From: Nitrososphaerota archaeon
Lineage (GTDB): Archaea; Thermoproteota; Nitrososphaeria_A; Caldarchaeales; Calditenuaceae
Assembly (NCBI GenBank): GCA_033581555.1
Contig: JAVQSZ010000001.1
Span: forward strand, 64,001 to 128,000
Reading direction: 5' to 3'
Length of the DNA stretch: 64,000 nucleotides
The position numbers and the translations under genes are program-made. Each line of letters begins with the position of its first letter. The first letter of the stretch is position 1. The notes under the pieces were generated by a model. That model did no database searches. It had not been told where the DNA came from and saw nothing but the letters and a program-made list of their open reading frames with translations. Positions 28,811-35,679 of this stretch are shown here, in pieces.

Positions 28811-29515
28811 GTGAACGCCTCCGAGTTGGAGTTAGGCGACGTTTTCAGGACCGCGGTTCCACCCCTGTTGTCAGCTATGTTAGTCCTAGGAGTTGTCGTT
28901 CTGTTCCCCGGGCTGATCCCCGGGACCTACAAGGTCACGACCGCGACCGTTCCAGTCCCCGTCTTCACGACACGGTTCGTTAACGTCACGACGACCCTGA
29001 CCACCGCCTACCTCGTCGACTCCCGGGGACCTGTTTGGGAGCCAGTGTTCGTGGACCTCTCGGAAAGGCCCACCGAGGGGACGATCACCGTCCTTAACAG
29101 GACGCTGACCAAGGAGAAGCCAGCGCTCGCAATAGTCTTCATAGCCGCGGCGCCCCGAGGTTACGAGTTCGCGAGCACGGTGAACGGCTTCGTCTACAGG
29201 CTCGAGGCTAAAGTCGCGAACAGGGTCACGGCGCTCGTCGCGGAGGCGTCACCTCCAGTCATCCCAGGGCTCAGCCGCGAGAACTTCAGGGACCTGCTGA
29301 CGGAGAGGGCGTTCTCACCGGTTAACGTCCTGCCGTTCCAGAACCCGAGGAGGACCGAAGTCTCACCGGGGCCCTTCACACTCCAGAGGGAGCGTGGAGC
29401 CTACGTGCCGTATCCGTGGCTCGCGATCTGGCCGATCTCGGTTCACCTCTACGGCATCGAGAGGGACGTCCACGTGACGGTCACGCTCTCCTACAGCCTG
29501 GTCGGGGCGAAGTGA
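28811..29515 (+). CDS. Membrane-anchored hypothetical protein with a Thr-rich linker; first gene of the E1 operon
   Basis: N-terminal TM followed by a TTxTT-rich stretch; stop overlaps the E1 GTG start (GTGA). Confidence 0.75.
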   Translation: MNASELELGDVFRTAVPPLLSAMLVLGVVVLFPGLIPGTYKVTTATVPVPVFTTRFVNVTTTLTTAYLVDSRGPVWEPVFVDLSERPTEGTITVLNRTLTKEKPALAIVFIAAAPRGYEFASTVNGFVYRLEAKVANRVTALVAEASPPVIPGLSRENFRDLLTERAFSPVNVLPFQNPRRTEVSPGPFTLQRERGAYVPYPWLAIWPISVHLYGIERDVHVTVTLSYSLVGAK

Positions 29516-30354
29516 GGCAGGAGCTCGCGCGGCGGACTCGGGTCTTCGAGATCTTCAGGATGGACGAGGACCGGTATGAGCGGCAGAGGAGGCTCTGGGA
29601 CCAGAGGAGGATATCGTCCCTGAAGGTCCTAGTGGGAGGTGCAGGGGCGCTCGGGAACGAGGTCGTGAAGAACCTGGTCCAGATCGGCGTGAAGAGGGTC
29701 TACGTCGTCGACTTCGACAGGGTCGTCCACTCGAACCTGAACAGGTGCCTCTTCTTCAGGAGAAGCGACGCGACCAAGAGGGCGAAGAAGGTCGATGCGC
29801 TCGCGAGGAGGGCCTCGGACCTCAACCCGGACGTGGAGGTCATTCCGGTCTTCGGGGACATTCGCGACCTCCCGAGCGACGTGATCAAGGACGTCGACAT
29901 GGCCCTTGGGGCCTTCGACAACCTCTTCGCTAGGCTCGTCCTCAACGCGATGTGCTACTCTAACGGTAAGCCCCTAGTTGACGGCGGAATGGAGGGGGTG
30001 CTCGGGACGGTCCAGGTCGTCCTCCCCCCGGAGAGCCCCTGCCTGGAGTGCGGGATGAGTGAGCGGGACCTCGAGCACATGTGGGAGAGGATCTCCTGCA
30101 GCGGCGACGTCGTCGTCGATGACGGTCCGAAGCTGCCCTACATTCCAATGACCGGAGCCCTCGTCGGAGCTCTGCAGGTCATGGAGGCGGTCAAGATAGT
30201 CCTCGGCCTCGAGTCCTACAGGTCTTCCGGGAGGTGGAACGAGTCGGTCGGAGCACCCCTCGTCGGCAAGTCCCTCTTCATCGACCTCAGGTCCAACCTG
30301 AGCTACGCCTACGACCTCCACAAGAGGAGCGACTGCAACGTCTGCGCCCCCTGA
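29512..30354 (+). CDS. Ubiquitin-activating E1-like enzyme (ThiF/UBA superfamily, UBA2/UBA3-like motifs)
   Basis: RYERQ, GAGALGNEVVKNL, DFDRVVHSNLNR, DGGMEG...QVVLPPESPCLEC, candidate catalytic Cys in ISCSG, C-terminal CNVC. Confidence 0.92.
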   Translation: MRQELARRTRVFEIFRMDEDRYERQRRLWDQRRISSLKVLVGGAGALGNEVVKNLVQIGVKRVYVVDFDRVVHSNLNRCLFFRRSDATKRAKKVDALARRASDLNPDVEVIPVFGDIRDLPSDVIKDVDMALGAFDNLFARLVLNAMCYSNGKPLVDGGMEGVLGTVQVVLPPESPCLECGMSERDLEHMWERISCSGDVVVDDGPKLPYIPMTGALVGALQVMEAVKIVLGLESYRSSGRWNESVGAPLVGKSLFIDLRSNLSYAYDLHKRSDCNVCAP

Positions 30355-30438: not shown

Positions 30439-30852
30439 GTGGAAAGAACTAGGTCGAGGGCAGGCCTCAGCGAAGCCGTAACGGCCATTCTGCTGGTGGT
30501 GATCGGGATTGCGATGGCGCTCATGATCTGGCAGTTCTTCACACCACGTCCGACTGAGGAGCTGAGAATAGGGCCCGTCGACGTCTCGGGAGGGGTGGTC
30601 GTCTTCACGGCGCAGAACGTCGGGAGCGTAGACGCGGAGATAATCGGAGTCGCGTGCTACACCGCGGGACAGCCTCCGGCGGCCGGAGGAGGGGTGACTC
30701 CCTTGGGCGGCGCGGACACCAAGCTTCAGCAGGGCGAGTCGAGCACCTTCACCGGGAGCTGCGGAGGCGCGGAGCCAGGCAAGCCGATCAACGTGATGGT
30801 CTATACCAAGAACAAGGCCTACGGTCCTTTCACGGTCATCGTCAGGTCGTGA
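30439..30852 (+). CDS. Archaeal type IV pilin (candidate major pilin)
   Basis: Class III signal RSRAG|LSEAVTAILLVVIGIAMALMIW; own TTTTTATA box ~25 nt upstream. Confidence 0.85.
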   Translation: MERTRSRAGLSEAVTAILLVVIGIAMALMIWQFFTPRPTEELRIGPVDVSGGVVVFTAQNVGSVDAEIIGVACYTAGQPPAAGGGVTPLGGADTKLQQGESSTFTGSCGGAEPGKPINVMVYTKNKAYGPFTVIVRS

Positions 30853-30967
30853 CGAGTTCACCTCCTCAACGAGAGTTGATTTTTCGCATTGATAATCGAG
30901 CAAACCCGCGTTCTTCGATTGACGAGAAACACATATATCATGCCGGCACGAAGCAAACTTGATTGAC

Positions 30968-31789
30968 ATGATCGTTACCGTGAACGAGCTGACCACTAAG
31001 CGAAGCGTCAGGTTGGAGGTCGAGCCCGGCCACACGGTGAGGGCGGTCGTCGAGGAGGTGATGAAAGCGCTGAAGGTCCCGCCGCAGACGACGTACAGGC
31101 TGGTACTGGGCGGGAAGGAGATCGGGCCAGAACTCTTCGACAAGACGCTGGGCGAGCTGGGCATATCGGACGGTGCTGTGATGGACCTCGTCCCGAGGCC
31201 CGTCGGCGGATCAACCCTCTTGCCCAAGGAGAAGTTCCTGAAGAGGCTGGAGAGGGAGGAGGAGGACCTGAGGAACGGCGGGTACCCTTTCACCAGACAA
31301 GACGTCTGGAGTCCGATGAACTTCCCGATGGTCTACAGCGCAGGCTACGAGACGGTCAACGTGGCGGTGAGGTACACGGTCTCCTTCAGGGCCAGGGGGT
31401 TCGTCATGACGAAGAGGGGGATCGAGGAGCAGTGGGACCACTTGGCGAGCCTCTACGTCCTCGACTACTACCCCTACATGGATCCAAAGAAGGGTGCACC
31501 GATGAGGATATTCTGGGAGAGCGACATTTTCCACCCTAACATCTGCCCTGGGCCCCGCTTCAACGGAAACGGGCTCGTCTGCTGGAAGATGATCAAGGAA
31601 TGGGGGAAGACCTTCTCGCTCGCGACGCTCGTGAGGGGGCTTCAGCTCCTCGTCGAGAACCCAAACCCCGAAGACCCGCTCAGCAAGATACCGATATGCA
31701 TGCACGCAGCGTCCTTCTTCAAGGAGAACCCGCACCTCACGGGCACCTACAGGCCAGATACCGGAAGCAGGCCCAGAGTGATCGAATAG
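30968..31789 (+). CDS. Ubiquitin-like domain (ends PVGG) fused to a ubiquitin-conjugating E2 (UBC) domain
   Basis: Beta-grasp-like N-terminal 81 aa (TVRAVVEEV...YRLVLGGKEI...KTLGELGISDGAVMDL...GG at 31205-31210), then IFHPNI...LVCW (Cys codon 31580)...W...LVENPNPEDPL. Confidence 0.92.
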   Translation: MIVTVNELTTKRSVRLEVEPGHTVRAVVEEVMKALKVPPQTTYRLVLGGKEIGPELFDKTLGELGISDGAVMDLVPRPVGGSTLLPKEKFLKRLEREEEDLRNGGYPFTRQDVWSPMNFPMVYSAGYETVNVAVRYTVSFRARGFVMTKRGIEEQWDHLASLYVLDYYPYMDPKKGAPMRIFWESDIFHPNICPGPRFNGNGLVCWKMIKEWGKTFSLATLVRGLQLLVENPNPEDPLSKIPICMHAASFFKENPHLTGTYRPDTGSRPRVIE

Positions 31790-31799
31790 GTGCGAGGAC

Positions 31800-32282
31800 T
31801 TGAGGGGAGAGGAGGCGGGCGTCCTCCCCGTCTACGTCGAGCTGGAGGCCCTCGTTAAGGCCGTCAGGCACTGTAGGGAGGGACTGCCTTACGAGGTCAT
31901 CGGTTTCCTGATTGGAGAGCGGCTGAGGTGGAGGGACAAGCTCTACGTCTTAATCACCGACACCGTGAGGGGTAGGTCGGTTCAAACCCGCACCTACGTC
32001 GAGTTCGATCAGGACGCGCTGGCGGAGGTCGCGGGGCTCATCAGGGAGGAACACCCGGACGCTGAGATCGTGGGCTGGTACCACTCTCACCCGGGATACG
32101 GTTGCTTCATGTCCCCTACTGACATTCGCTCCCATACGACCTGTTTCCCCTATCCACATCAGGTCGCGCTCGTCATCGACCCAGTCAGAGGCGAGGCCTC
32201 GTTCTTCAAGGTCGATGGGGAAGGGGATTACCGAACCGTCCCATCTGCGGTGGTGAGGAGGACGCGTGGTCAGGATCGTTGA
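31800..32282 (+). CDS. JAMM/MPN+ metalloprotease (Rpn11/CSN5-like Ubl-processing protease)
   Basis: EVIGFLIG, IVGWYHSHPGYGCFMSPTD, ALVIDPV. Confidence 0.95.
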   Translation: MRGEEAGVLPVYVELEALVKAVRHCREGLPYEVIGFLIGERLRWRDKLYVLITDTVRGRSVQTRTYVEFDQDALAEVAGLIREEHPDAEIVGWYHSHPGYGCFMSPTDIRSHTTCFPYPHQVALVIDPVRGEASFFKVDGEGDYRTVPSAVVRRTRGQDR

Positions 32283-32433
32283 GGTAAGGGAGAGGGACGT
32301 CAGGGAGGCTCCGCCCCCCGTTGACGGGGAATACGAGCTGATAGCTGTCGACTGGGAAGGCGTCGGTTACGATCTCTCGGACCTTTTGAGCCAGTTGGAA
32401 GATGAAGCGAGCAGGGCTCGGACGGAAGACTAG
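32266..32433 (+). CDS. 55-aa acidic small protein overlapping the JAMM 3' end (below ORF-track cutoff)
   Basis: Manual translation MVRIVEVRERDVREAPPPVDGEYELIAVDWEGVGYDLSDLLSQLEDEASRARTED*; GAGGAGG upstream; fills the gap to the convergent gene. Confidence 0.65.
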   Translation: MVRIVEVRERDVREAPPPVDGEYELIAVDWEGVGYDLSDLLSQLEDEASRARTED

Positions 32434-32437
32434 GCGG

Positions 32438-33217
32438 TCAGGGTCCACGTCCTTCCGTGCCTCTTCGCGATATGCCCATGACGGCGGCCTTCGACTCGTT
32501 CAGGGCCTTCGCTAGAAGGCGCTCCTTCGGGCCGAGCCTCGTCCCCAGCGCGCTAAGGGCGAAGTCGATCTCGGAGGTGACCAACCTCGCGACCTCCTCG
32601 ATAAGTGGTTCAAGGGCACTCGAGCCCGACTCGTACTCCCTAAGGAGGACAGCCAAGTCGTCGCCGATGTAGAGGGCCCTGTAGATCGACCGATCAAGCC
32701 TCTTGTAGAGTTTCCTGGAGATCCTGATGAGCCGCAGCTCCCAGAGGGCGAGGTCCAGCAGCGCCCGAGCCTCCCTCTCCCTGCCGAGGGACTTCAGTAT
32801 TCCGAGCGACGCTACTGCGCCGATGAACGCCCTGTAGAGTTTGCCAGCCTCAGCGACCGTGAGGGGGATCAGCTTGGTGTTGAGCATGAAAGCGATCTGC
32901 GCCTCGTCCTTCAACGTGAGGACACTCTTCGCCTCCTCGCCGATGGCCTTGGCTAGGTCCTCCTTGCTCTGCTGGTCTGCCAACAGCGATGACGACTGTT
33001 CTCTGACGTCCGTCCACGACTTGCTCACGGCCAGCATCTTATCGAGGAGCGCCCCTATCGAGGACTCCCCAATCAACGGCGCCTCGGAGACGTAAAGTAC
33101 AGTTGGAGGCGGTAGAACGTATTGATTCACCTTTAGGACCTTGGGTCTGCTTCTCTTCAGCGACTCAGTTCGCCCCCGAAAGAAGAGAGAGCCCGACCGA
33201 TGTCCGCCACGACTCAT
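32438..33217 (-). CDS. Hypothetical helical protein co-transcribed with two pilin-like genes
   Basis: 259-aa ORF; ATGA overlap with the 33214-33672 gene. Confidence 0.75.
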   Translation of the reverse strand: MSRGGHRSGSLFFRGRTESLKRSRPKVLKVNQYVLPPPTVLYVSEAPLIGESSIGALLDKMLAVSKSWTDVREQSSSLLADQQSKEDLAKAIGEEAKSVLTLKDEAQIAFMLNTKLIPLTVAEAGKLYRAFIGAVASLGILKSLGREREARALLDLALWELRLIRISRKLYKRLDRSIYRALYIGDDLAVLLREYESGSSALEPLIEEVARLVTSEIDFALSALGTRLGPKERLLAKALNESKAAVMGISRRGTEGRGP

Positions 33218-33672
33218 CCCCTGCTCACCGCTAGGATCCCGACCCTATCAGCGGAACAGGTAAGCCTCGCGGTCCACGCGGAGAACGACCTGGTCGGGTC
33301 ATAAGTTCCCCAGACGACCGAGAAGAGCCTGTGGCCTATCACGACGGTACCGTCGGAGTTCCTGACCAGCTTGATGACCGTGAAGTTCACTGAGACGCTC
33401 GGCGGTGCAACTGACGCGATGATGGCGAGGGCCTCGTCGACGGGGATGCCGTCCTCCCGGCATACTAGGGCCTCCATCTGACCGCGCTCCGTCAGGGCCG
33501 CGACCATTTTGTTAGCGAGCTCCTCGAGGTCATTCCTCTGCTCAGAGACCGAGACGGTCTTCATGGAGACGATCTGATAGAAGAGGACAATCCCTATGAC
33601 AATGATGATTGAGGCCAGGATCGCCTCAACGGTCCAAACCATCCCGAGACGCCTGGAGCTCGACGTCCTCAT
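33214..33672 (-). CDS. Minor pilin-like protein
   Basis: RRLG|MVWTVEAILASIIIVIGIVLFY class III-like signal; ATG 33672 overlaps the upstream stop. Confidence 0.75.
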   Translation of the reverse strand: MRTSSSRRLGMVWTVEAILASIIIVIGIVLFYQIVSMKTVSVSEQRNDLEELANKMVAALTERGQMEALVCREDGIPVDEALAIIASVAPPSVSVNFTVIKLVRNSDGTVVIGHRLFSVVWGTYDPTRSFSAWTARLTCSADRVGILAVSRG

Positions 33673-34409
33673 GACACACCACCCGACCAAGCCCAGACCT
33701 CCACGCTCAGGGTCACCCCGTTCTCTGATACGGTCGTCTCCGAAAGGTAAACCGCATCGGGCGGTATCGAGACCCTGGACGGCTCGACAAAGCGGCCCTT
33801 CACGAACGCCACCACTAATTCGGGGTATACAGCCGGCACGACGTGATAAGAAGACTCCGTGAAGACCACCACGGGCGACTCGAAGATAATCGGTGCGATC
33901 TCGTAACCGGACTCGACTACCGTTGACCCACCGTAATAGCAGAGGCTTGCGCTTCCAGAGACCCGTGTAGTTCCGTCTTCCCCGTAATTCACGAGGCGGG
34001 GATCGAGCCGCAGGCCCCTCACGAGGACGCCGTACTGCGTCACTACGATCGTACCCCCGCCTCCTGTCGCGCAGGTCGTGTAATCGGACGGGAACGAGAG
34101 GGCGACAGCAGGGCCCGATTGCACTATCCTCTGCGTGAACGAGACCCTTGCGACGAAGTCGACCCTGATTCCCCTGAAGTCGTAGGAAGGCGCTCCCACG
34201 TAGGCGGGGTTCAGGAAGAAGGCGTCCCTCGAGGACCTGGAGACGAGCGATTTGATGAGGTTAAGGGCCGCCCTCGACTCGACGCGGACCATCGCGTCCT
34301 CAGTGAAGGAGAGGTAGCTCGATGCTCCGGAGAGCGCGGAGAAGACTACTAGACCAGCGACTAGCGCGAAGAGCGAGACCCCGATTGCCGCGTCAACCAC
34401 CGCCTCCAT
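33669..34409 (-). CDS. Pilin-like protein with an N-terminal hydrophobic helix
   Basis: MEAVVDAAIGVSLFALVAGLVVF then a beta-rich domain; no basic leader. Confidence 0.6.
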   Translation of the reverse strand: MEAVVDAAIGVSLFALVAGLVVFSALSGASSYLSFTEDAMVRVESRAALNLIKSLVSRSSRDAFFLNPAYVGAPSYDFRGIRVDFVARVSFTQRIVQSGPAVALSFPSDYTTCATGGGGTIVVTQYGVLVRGLRLDPRLVNYGEDGTTRVSGSASLCYYGGSTVVESGYEIAPIIFESPVVVFTESSYHVVPAVYPELVVAFVKGRFVEPSRVSIPPDAVYLSETTVSENGVTLSVEVWAWSGGVS

Positions 34410-34488: not shown

Positions 34489-34815
34489 ATGAGCGCGGGG
34501 AGCGGCGGATTGGAGGACCTGCTCAAGAGGCTGAGGCTGGAGATCGTCGGCGACTTCAGGCAGTACCTGAACGCGCTTGAGCAGACCGGGGACGGCTCCT
34601 GGGAGGTGGCACTGACCGAGAAGGCAGAGGCCTTCGCGGGAACGATGGAGTGTCCGGTCGATAGGGAGGAGGTGCGGATCGAGGAGAGCGTGCTGTGCCC
34701 CATCTGTTACACGCCATATCACGTGGACTGTGCCAAGATCCTCGCCAGCAGGTCGGAGAAGTGCTGGAAGTGCGAGCGGTTCGACAGGTTCGACCTCCTT
34801 CTGAGGGGCAGGTGA
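34489..34815 (+). CDS. Small RING-type zinc finger protein (Prok-RING-like, putative E3)
   Basis: CPVD...CPICYTPYHVDC...CWKC, with Asp at the second ligand position. Confidence 0.8.
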   Translation: MSAGSGGLEDLLKRLRLEIVGDFRQYLNALEQTGDGSWEVALTEKAEAFAGTMECPVDREEVRIEESVLCPICYTPYHVDCAKILASRSEKCWKCERFDRFDLLLRGR

Positions 34816-34821
34816 CGCAAA

Positions 34822-35679
34822 ATGAGCCTGGAGCACGAGGCGAGTCGTCGGATCCTGATCAGCCTGCTGACTGATCCTCACAGGTCAGGCAGGACAATTT
34901 ACTTCGACCCAGATGCGCTATCGGCGAGGCTGGGTGGACAGGCATGGGACCACCTCGAGGCGATGATCGAGCTGGGCGAGAAGGGGCTCATCAAGTTCCA
35001 CTTCACCAAGGAAGTGGAACTTCTGTTCAGGTTCATACGCGCAAGGGCGAGGCTTGAGCACGTGGCCGGGTTGAAAGAGGTGGATGAGGTCGCCGACGAG
35101 CTGAGGAAGGCGAAGATCCTCGGCAGGATCGTAGGGAGGGACCTCGAGGTGATTAGGGATCAGAGGGTTCCTGACCACCTCGAGGCGCTCAGGGCCCTCT
35201 CGGTTCAACTCGGCAAGCTGCTGAAGCTCCTCGAGGGGAAGAAACTGGTCAGCAGGGAGGTCTACGAGATGGTTGCAGCGTCAGTGCTGTCCCAGACCGC
35301 TAACGTCGTTCAGTCTACGGAGCAGGTCCTCTCCTCTCTCAGGACGGCCCTAGCCGAACTCGTGGAGGTGATGAACGCATTGATTCAAGAGCGGGCGAGG
35401 ATATTGGGGCTCCGCGACAGGCTAGGCTTCAATCTCGAGGAGCTCGACTTGGTGTCGAACTCCTACCTCTCGGGCATCGAGGAGTTCAGGCGCCTCCTTC
35501 AGCAGATCGATCGACTGTTGAGGGGAGCCATACCGAACTGGGACGAGGTGATAGGGTCAGCTCAAAAGATGAGCTCGGAGTTCGCGCAGAGGGCGCCATT
35601 CGTTGACGTCGTCCTTAAACAGATGACCTCCATCAACGAGATGCTGAAGGCTGGAATTGAGACTGAACTTGGCCGATGA
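34822..35679 (+). CDS. Hypothetical coiled-coil protein, possible N-terminal wHTH and CdvA-like segment
   Basis: Starts 6 bp after the RING gene; MIELGEKGLIKF; LEGKKLVSREVYEM; long heptad helices. Confidence 0.75.
   Translation: MSLEHEASRRILISLLTDPHRSGRTIYFDPDALSARLGGQAWDHLEAMIELGEKGLIKFHFTKEVELLFRFIRARARLEHVAGLKEVDEVADELRKAKILGRIVGRDLEVIRDQRVPDHLEALRALSVQLGKLLKLLEGKKLVSREVYEMVAASVLSQTANVVQSTEQVLSSLRTALAELVEVMNALIQERARILGLRDRLGFNLEELDLVSNSYLSGIEEFRRLLQQIDRLLRGAIPNWDEVIGSAQKMSSEFAQRAPFVDVVLKQMTSINEMLKAGIETELGR

Follow-up and report, generated by a model that had tools for sequence, protein, structure and literature searches.

A ubiquitin-like modifier encoded in frame with its own E2 in a hot-spring archaeon, and its probable maturation by an adjacent Rpn11-type JAMM protease

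We analysed a stretch of 64,000 nucleotides (nt; henceforth the window) from a Nitrososphaerota archaeon (assembly GCA_033581555.1, contig JAVQSZ010000001.1, positions 64,001 to 128,000 of the forward strand), a thermophile from a hot spring. A single gene of the window encodes a ubiquitin-like modifier (Ubl) joined through its Gly-Gly (GG) to a ubiquitin-conjugating enzyme (E2), and the gene directly after it encodes a metalloprotease of the JAMM type. The features of these two genes, in window coordinates and with lengths in amino acids (aa), are as follows.

30968..31789, + strand: Ubl-GG-E2 precursor gene, 273 aa plus stop, with an in-frame TTG at 30959
30968..31210, + strand: ubiquitin-like beta-grasp domain, residues 1-81, ending VPRPVGG (Pfam near cut-off, alignment on ubiquitin)
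31211..31219, + strand: junction S82-T83-L84, variable in sequence and length across homologues; the predicted scissile bond lies between G81 and S82
31220..31786, + strand: UBC-fold E2, residues 85-273, with helix 1 from about residue 87 and the C-terminal tail motif RPRVI
31532..31540, + strand: HPN motif of the E2 (H189-P190-N191)
31580..31582, + strand: catalytic Cys205 of the E2
31658..31681, + strand: NPNPEDPL of the E2 (residues N231-L238)
31800..32282, + strand: Rpn11-type JAMM metalloprotease, 160 aa (JAB, E 3.8e-14)

The list of open reading frames (ORFs) of the window shows one uninterrupted ORF at 30959..31789 (+), giving 276 aa from the TTG or 273 aa from the ATG at 30968, and aligned homologues begin at the residue encoded by 30968, with M, V or L. 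The DNA of the junction (CCG AGG CCC GTC GGC GGA TCA ACC CTC TTG CCC) has no stop after the GG, so that the protein reads through as VPRPVGG-STLLPKEK, with G80-G81 encoded at 31205..31210. A first-pass annotation, made from the sequence alone, had described a continuous ORF with a beta-grasp-like domain of ~81 aa ending VPRPVGG followed by a UBC domain with HPN, Cys and NPEDPL, and the ORF list, Pfam and the alignments all agree with it. Its placement of a JAMM gene 10 bp downstream is likewise borne out: the TAG stop of the fusion occupies 31787..31789, the TTG start of the JAMM gene lies at 31800 and the gap is 10 nt.

Both halves of the protein could be related to known families. The Pfam models ubiquitin and Rad60-SLD cover residues 4-75 (E ~5e-5) with 23.2 and 23.3 bits (cut-offs 25.4 and 23.8 bits), and UQ_con covers residues 177-240 with 31 bits (E 2.2e-7), above its cut-off of 27 bits. 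In phmmer searches of the PDB, residues 6-85 align on ubiquitin, PRPVGG falling on LRLRGG; the match to a lone ubiquitin unit is weak (i-E ~0.18), di-ubiquitin is matched at 1.3e-7, and the fusion matches the ubiquitin (Ub) of Caldiarchaeum subterraneum (Cs; 2mqj_A) at 1.1e-4 and E2 structures such as Ubc12 at 1e-5. The Ubl is 30-36% identical to Caldiarchaeum-type Ub, its GG falling on the TVGG of the Cs-type proteins. In the AlphaFold2 monomer model of the fusion, helices are modelled after residue 218, and residues 77-83 have a pLDDT (predicted local distance difference test) score below 50, as would be expected of a flexible linker. The E2s of this family, fused or split (window, P0062, P0049, L048, L026), end after a variable linker in the motif P-(R/K)-(V/I)-(V/I/L); in the window this tail is SRPRVIE (31768..31786), and PRVV occurs three times in P0062. 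The conserved tail may be a docking peptide, either for the activating enzyme (E1) of the system, which has no ubiquitin-fold domain, or for the JAMM.

In other families of the order the Ub and E2 genes are adjacent and overlap in different frames, so that one frameshift would fuse them, and the continuous frame might be an artefact of assembly or sequencing that joined two neighbouring genes. We give this explanation practically no credence. The fusion is uninterrupted in five of the seven genomes of the genus, including the source genome, at 78-94% identity with many substitutions and no stops. In a collection of 5.8 billion proteins, eight of nine homologues, all metagenome-derived, span the junction and all eight keep the GG; the ninth (P0009, 190 aa) begins just past the junction, at the Met that several close homologues have one or two residues after the GG, and may be a truncated gene call, its source contig being 711 bp long. 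Logan contigs from four public hot-spring runs of four studies contain no insertion or deletion over 30900..31900. They differ from the window at only two positions: 30957 (A>G) is upstream of the start, and 31540 (C>T) is read as a synonymous change; all four are contigs and not raw reads, and two of the runs may be the source of the window DNA. A stop or frameshift after the GG (31210), which the first-pass annotation had named as fatal to its reading, is thus found neither in the five genus genomes nor in the contigs of these four runs. Divergent fused families (see below) add further independent cases. As far as assemblies can tell, the junction is not an assembly error. A scan of species-representative genomes with patterns from the close-family alignment found loci only under the titles Candidatus Calditenuaceae, Ca. 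Calditenuis fumarioli and Ca. Caldarchaeales. These taxa belong to the former Aigarchaeota.

The architecture is not confined to close relatives. A profile of eight fused sequences gave 194 matches at E <= 1e-3 against 1.84 billion cluster representatives, among which, from the table and the sequences, we recognised 13 further, much more divergent clusters with Ubl and E2 in one chain, about 16 family E2s that stand alone and whose match begins at profile positions 83-92, and stand-alone Ubls ending RPxGG plus 0-20 extra residues. Twelve of the 13 divergent fusions have both the junction GG and the catalytic Cys; the remaining one, P0096, has neither, with RRDKEK in place of the GG and His for the Cys. 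Across 16 aligned fusions (24-78% identical to that of the window) HPN is present in all, and G80, G81 and C205 each in 15. The GG is therefore conserved in all eight close homologues and in 15 of the 16 aligned fusions, and these alignments indicate that the junction GG is under selection. A profile built from the 16-fusion alignment recovers the Ub genes of relatives at E 1e-10 to 1e-13. In the P0166 subfamily, known from three metagenome contigs (L036, L037, L038), a JAMM gene lies 5 nt behind the fusion and a short E1 comes next; the JAMM is complete in L036 and L038, and in L037 its ORF ends with the contig after 99 aa, before the catalytic motifs.

Some members of the wider family have other arrangements. 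P0025 (475 aa) is a family E2 fused to a Ser/Thr protein kinase domain, and P0017 (352 aa) is a tandem E2-E2. Downstream of the fusion, JAMM and E1 of L038 (2110..3344) lie a Cys-rich repeat protein and another ORF, which we take to resemble a YqaJ-type exonuclease; these genes could represent a mobile or viral context. Scans of viral contigs gave no relative of P0166 or P0062. Leads from a protein atlas (best score 0.91, 154 shared features) include a bacterial E2 cluster with a YukD-like domain in 17% of its members.

Several observations point to the JAMM as the enzyme that matures the precursor. Its E32, H95-x-H97, S105 and D108 are invariant in two JAMM alignments, its nearest solved relative is the Rpn11 of C. 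subterraneum (CsRpn11, 6fjv; E 4e-18), ahead of eukaryotic Rpn11 and CSN5, and its gene directly follows the fusion in all five genus genomes that carry it. A model of the complex of full-length fusion, JAMM and Zn reached an ipSAE (interaction prediction score from aligned errors) of 0.68 against 0.00 for the best control, passing a mark that 58 of 80 solved complexes and 2 of 110 mismatched pairs attained; runs share at least 76% of contacts, and partner pLDDT is at least 82. The modelled interface comprises fusion residues 8-11, 37-51, 73 and 75-84 and none beyond 84 in the E2. The tail 75-84 lies in the catalytic groove with G80-S82 at the catalytic residues of the JAMM, G80 contacting H95, T107 and D108. 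According to published work on the Caldiarchaeum proteins (PMC5654768, PMC6043591), CsRpn11 cuts pro-Ub exactly after the GG, uncut pro-Ub is refractory to E1, and linear fusions of Ub to GFP, lactalbumin and dihydrofolate reductase (DHFR) are also cut. The same sources report that bulky or charged residues just after the GG block cleavage; position +1 is Ser, Ala, Ile or Leu in the close family and mostly small in the divergent fusions (Ala/Ser/Gly/Thr, also Val/Ile; Lys once). Taking sequence, model and analogy together, we consider it probable that the JAMM matures the precursor after the GG into free Ubl-GG and free E2.

This precursor is not the only ubiquitin of the organism. On contig C7 of the same genome (locus L027, 7171..9127) there is a canonical Caldiarchaeum-type operon, with a 78-aa Ub that ends TRTVGG-stop and carries no propeptide, a 182-aa E2 whose frame overlaps, and a 406-aa E1 that has a beta-grasp domain at its C-terminus. 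Because this canonical Ub/E2/E1 operon (system A) lies on another contig, the window operon represents a second, divergent system (system B). We had ourselves entertained the idea that the genome has no other Ubl, since a search with the 82-aa Ubl returned only itself at E <= 1; the ORFs on C7 and a profile match at E 1.8e-10 overturned it. The proteins of system B are 24-40% identical to the canonical set. The window Ubl is 30% identical to the system-A Ub of the genome, and for the E2 part the identity is 24% to the genome's own system-A E2 and 29-31% to its counterpart across the family. Three JAB genes are present in the genome, the third on contig C4.

In the 59 other genomes of the order that were sampled, Ub and E2 have a gene each, the two lying side by side, and the 9-residue Ub propeptide of a C. 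subterraneum-like genome is the stretch of the Ub frame that overlaps the E2 gene. The description that Ub and E2 of some relatives are parted by one in-frame stop fails for G368, which has two stops at that place. A further family of the phylum (L041, G281:C9, 119..2205, - strand) has an 80-aa Ub ending NIIGG-stop, with the E2 following one codon later in frame; the E1 of this locus has 413 aa and an N-terminal beta-grasp domain.

System B itself also exists in split form, in L048, from a genome of another order, and in L026, an AT-rich contig binned with the genus. Here the order is membrane protein, Ubl, short E1, E2, JAMM and second membrane protein; the Ubl has 99-105 aa and ends ARVVGG plus a tail, and the E2 has 213 aa and begins MLPL. 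L026 (G005:C91) is probably mis-binned: its GC content is 44% vs 63% for the window, it contains 32 N, and its layout copies that of G221:C8 of another order. Aligned with the fusion, the stand-alone split E2 matches it from Leu85 as far as the RPRVI at the C-terminus (35% identity, E 5e-31). Because the alignment starts at Leu85, the fusion junction consists of the GG, one to three residues and then the E2's own N-terminus. By BLASTP the window Ubl has no significant match to the system-A Ub (E 5.8) or to the split-system Ubl (E 0.45), and it is related to both through alignment and profile methods only. In a maximum-likelihood tree of 42 E2 domains, the label fused or split changes at least nine times, seven of the changes being forced by well-supported branches, and two fused proteins group with the system-A E2s. 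Fused and split forms thus seem to interconvert. Two features of the tree weigh against reading it too literally: split rows were checked at the DNA level for L048 only, so that others may be truncated gene calls, and the row of the window was cut at a second GG (residue 105) instead of at the junction.

Cleavage by the adjacent JAMM has to be weighed against several points that speak the other way. The Pfam scores of the Ubl fall just under their cut-offs, and the AlphaFold2 monomer of the fusion, made from an 8-row alignment, is of modest quality (mean pLDDT 63). The pass of the complex model is not independent evidence, because it may reflect likeness to the solved CsRpn11-CsUb complex. The linker is three residues long ahead of helix 1 of the E2. 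According to PMC5654768 and PMC6043591, a directly fused, tightly folded DHFR was cut by CsRpn11 only after partial unfolding or with a 3-residue linker; with so short a linker in the fusion, access of the JAMM is plausible but not guaranteed. Because the genome has a separate Ub-GG and two other JABs, the modifier or the protease could conceivably be a different one. In several close homologues a Met stands one or two residues past the GG, so that free E2 could there also arise by internal initiation.

Some of these points favour a fusion that is never cut, in which the beta-grasp domain is a permanent part of the E2 that could, for example, dock on the E1 or act as a regulatory UBL, the conjugated modifier coming from elsewhere, e.g. 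from the canonical operon. A stand-alone Ub ending GG is indeed present in the same genome, the linker has only three residues, and P0096, which lacks the GG, implies that an uncleaved fused form can persist. We nonetheless hold such a permanent fusion to be unlikely. The GG is retained by 15 of the 16 divergent fusions, and the one without it has lost the catalytic Cys too; the split relatives of this E2 family have their own Ubl (GG plus tail) and the same short E1; a JAMM follows the fusion in every locus examined (the five genus genomes and the three contigs of the P0166 subfamily); and, with 30% identity and no significant BLASTP match between the Ubl and the system-A Ub, sharing of one E1 is unlikely.

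Alternatively, Ubl and E2 could be separated not, or not only, by the neighbouring JAMM, with an internal start after the GG or another protease doing the work. A Met stands one or two residues after the GG in P0001, P0002 and P0006 and in G001, G004 and G006, codon 85 of the window gene is TTG, P0009 begins at a Met past the GG, and, as the genome has three JAB genes, one of the two others might do the cutting. Against this, the three residues after the GG include no Met in any of the 12 divergent GG-bearing fusions, nor in the window protein, P0003, P0004, P0005 or P0007; an internal start would leave the Ubl blocked in the full-length product; P0009, with its 711-bp contig, may simply be truncated; and, across lineages, linkage to the fusion is seen for this JAMM alone. 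CsRpn11 and CsJAMM, moreover, are each specific for their own partner, according to PMC5654768 and PMC6043591. We rate the chance of such a separate route as low.

The remaining genes of the operon and its surroundings are the following.

29560..30354, + strand: short E1 of the ThiF fold, 264 aa from ATG (ThiF, E 3.7e-46); the longest ORF begins at 29416
30439..30852, + strand: 137-aa protein with an N-terminal hydrophobic helix, between E1 and fusion; no family match
32266..32433, + strand: acidic ORF of 55 aa, sharing 17 nt with the end of the JAMM gene; no family match
34489..34815, + strand: RING/PHD-like zinc-finger protein, 108 aa, with the finger CPV..C..C..YH..C..C..C
34822..35679, + strand: coiled-coil protein, 285 aa, directly after the RING-like protein

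Four zinc Cys are present in the short E1, and its crossover-loop Cys (ERISCSGD) is conserved; in alignment it is ~130 aa shorter than system-A E1s and is without their crossover insertion and C-terminal beta-grasp domain. Three other genus genomes have the same gene order as the window, on the + strand, of E1, 137-aa protein, fusion, JAMM and 55-aa ORF. The 137-aa protein is kept at 86-95% identity in three of the four other genus genomes, and the 55-aa ORF accompanies fusion and JAMM in all five at 50-83% identity. In G001 the block is rearranged, with the E1 ~16 kb off, and fusion, JAMM and 55-aa ORF stay together. Beyond the 55-aa ORF come three genes on the - strand (two with N-terminal hydrophobic helices), the RING-like and coiled-coil genes and a second coiled-coil protein gene (-). 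The Cys/His finger of the 108-aa protein matches Prok-RING_1 at E 1.6e-3 with 18.8 bits, under the cut-off of 29.1 bits, and the gene stands beside the operon in all five genus genomes. This protein is a candidate for the E3 (ligase) of the system. In the split operon L026 (5734..6789, -), a coiled-coil protein of 351 aa carries a similar finger at its C-terminus. Against PADLOC-DB 2.0 the fusion matched no family, the E1 only the generic ThiF of E1-E2 (Cap2-type) systems, and the JAB weakly, with no defence-system membership.

Proteins with an N-terminal hydrophobic helix are found in or beside the operon (30439..30852 on the + strand; 33214..33690 and 33669..34409 on the - strand) as well as in L048, L026 and L041. 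They accompany fused, split and more distant versions alike; one has a weak DUF7288 match, and they are possibly type IV pilin-like. These neighbours hint at a link to the cell surface.

We propose that the Rpn11-type JAMM, probably co-transcribed with its substrate, would cut the peptide bond after Gly81. The released Ubl, its Gly-Gly now exposed, would be adenylated by the short E1 of the operon and loaded on the crossover-loop Cys, as homology suggests. The freed E2, beginning two or three residues before helix 1, would take over the Ubl on Cys205 and hand it to targets, probably with the neighbouring RING-like protein. Like CsRpn11, the JAMM would, in addition, take the tag off again. The first-pass annotation had seen in this a proteolytic on-switch. 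Because one operon encodes both protease and precursor, with a gap of only 10 nt, the precursor is most likely matured constitutively, in the manner of eukaryotic Ub-ribosomal-protein precursors, and not by a regulated switch. Release of Ubl and E2 at a 1:1 ratio is a trivial consequence if cleavage occurs, although that ratio might point to a specialised tagging system of low throughput.

A bolder proposal is that the uncut precursor is a double zymogen and assembly scaffold, "charged at birth" in the sense that each Ubl is handed to the E2 it was born with. Helix 1 of the E2, the usual binding face for E1 and E3, would be masked in the precursor because it starts three residues after the GG, and the GG of the Ubl would be blocked as well. 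As the E1 is without a ubiquitin-fold domain, the uncut precursor could dock on it through the Ubl and bring the E2 along, the JAMM cutting within the complex; the conserved P-R-V-V tail of the E2 might then be a second docking peptide. We regard this scheme as speculative and rather improbable.

Three known systems invite comparison. The C. subterraneum operon comprises Ub, E1, E2, the RING E3 srfp and Rpn11 (Nunoura 2011; PMC5654768; PMC6043591). The window system shares with it a beta-grasp Ub ending xVGG, a UBC E2 with HPN and catalytic Cys, a ThiF-type E1 with zinc Cys pairs, a stand-alone Rpn11-like JAMM (E...HxH...S..D), a neighbour that may be a RING finger protein, and a host of the same order; either system makes its Ub as a precursor needing a cut after the GG, cleavage being predicted for the window system. 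The differences lie in the layout: the Caldiarchaeum tail is nine residues that derive from the overlap with the E2 gene, whereas the "tail" of the window protein is the whole E2, the Ubl being fused to it in frame and having no gene of its own. The window E1 has 264 aa vs ~400 aa and has no beta-grasp domain at its C-terminus, and the gene order differs. The window system is a divergent relative of the Caldiarchaeum-type system.

The precursor layout itself has a published parallel in bacteria, so that the uniqueness implied when the fusion was first described does not hold. In the Type I Bub systems (formerly 6E.1), as shown in a preprint (bioRxiv 10.1101/2024.11.21.623953), the JAB of BubCD cuts BubAB, in which Ubl and E2 are fused, behind a conserved Gly, so that both parts are released; BubA often has one to three beta-grasp domains, and BubE is a DUF6527 protease. 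A polyUbl fused to an E2-like domain had been noted earlier (row 6e of Iyer, Burroughs and Aravind 2006, PMC1779556). In the window system, as in Type I Bub, the Ubl is an N-terminal fusion to the E2 with a JAB/JAMM in the same operon. The two differ in several ways: Bub E2s have Ser, His and Asp instead of a catalytic Cys and are without the C-terminal UBC helices, whereas the window E2 is canonical (HPN, Cys, NPNPxDP); the Bub JAB is fused to the E1, whereas JAMM and E1 are separate genes in the window; and the Bub E1 has no catalytic Cys, whereas the window E1 keeps its crossover-loop Cys. The system of the window is not a member of Bub. No Pfam match to DUF6527 was found among the 12 window proteins scanned, the rest of the genome lying outside that search.

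Eukaryotic ubiquitin precursors include polyubiquitin and fusions of Ub to the ribosomal proteins eL40 and eS31. One Ub-ribosomal-protein fusion, 7qep_E1, is among the PDB matches of our fusion. In these precursors too the Ub is N-terminal and is freed after the GG by a deubiquitinase at 1:1 with its partner, as is predicted for the window system. The partner, however, is a ribosomal protein or more ubiquitin and not an E2, and the precursor is cut by cytosolic Cys-protease deubiquitinases and not by Rpn11, according to Fuchs 2018 (PMC6043591).

No description of an archaeal Ub-E2 fusion was found in the literature searched, which did not extend to supplements and covered subscription journals thinly. 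A term search of the main text of PMC6053391, PMC6043591, PMC5654768, PMC4681859 and PMC10547907 likewise gave no archaeal Ub-E2 fusion. Archaeal models of the ancestral ubiquitin machinery had previously been known with a short propeptide only. To our knowledge, eukaryotes always make ubiquitin as a fusion precursor. The system described here joins a eukaryote-like Ub, a Cys-dependent E2 and an Rpn11-type protease with a layout, the modifier fused to its own E2, that has so far been demonstrated only for the divergent bacterial Bub systems. As it is small (E1 264 aa, precursor 273 aa, JAMM 160 aa) and thermophilic, it is directly testable in vitro, and it could serve as a minimal, heat-stable, protease-activated conjugation kit. 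For the organism, two parallel ubiquitin systems in one genome raise the question of how cross-talk is avoided. For the family, since fused forms are spread over many divergent uncultured lineages and seem to change into split ones and back, our findings suggest that ubiquitin-type systems have in fused precursors and their maturation by a JAMM a trait that is both old and flexible.

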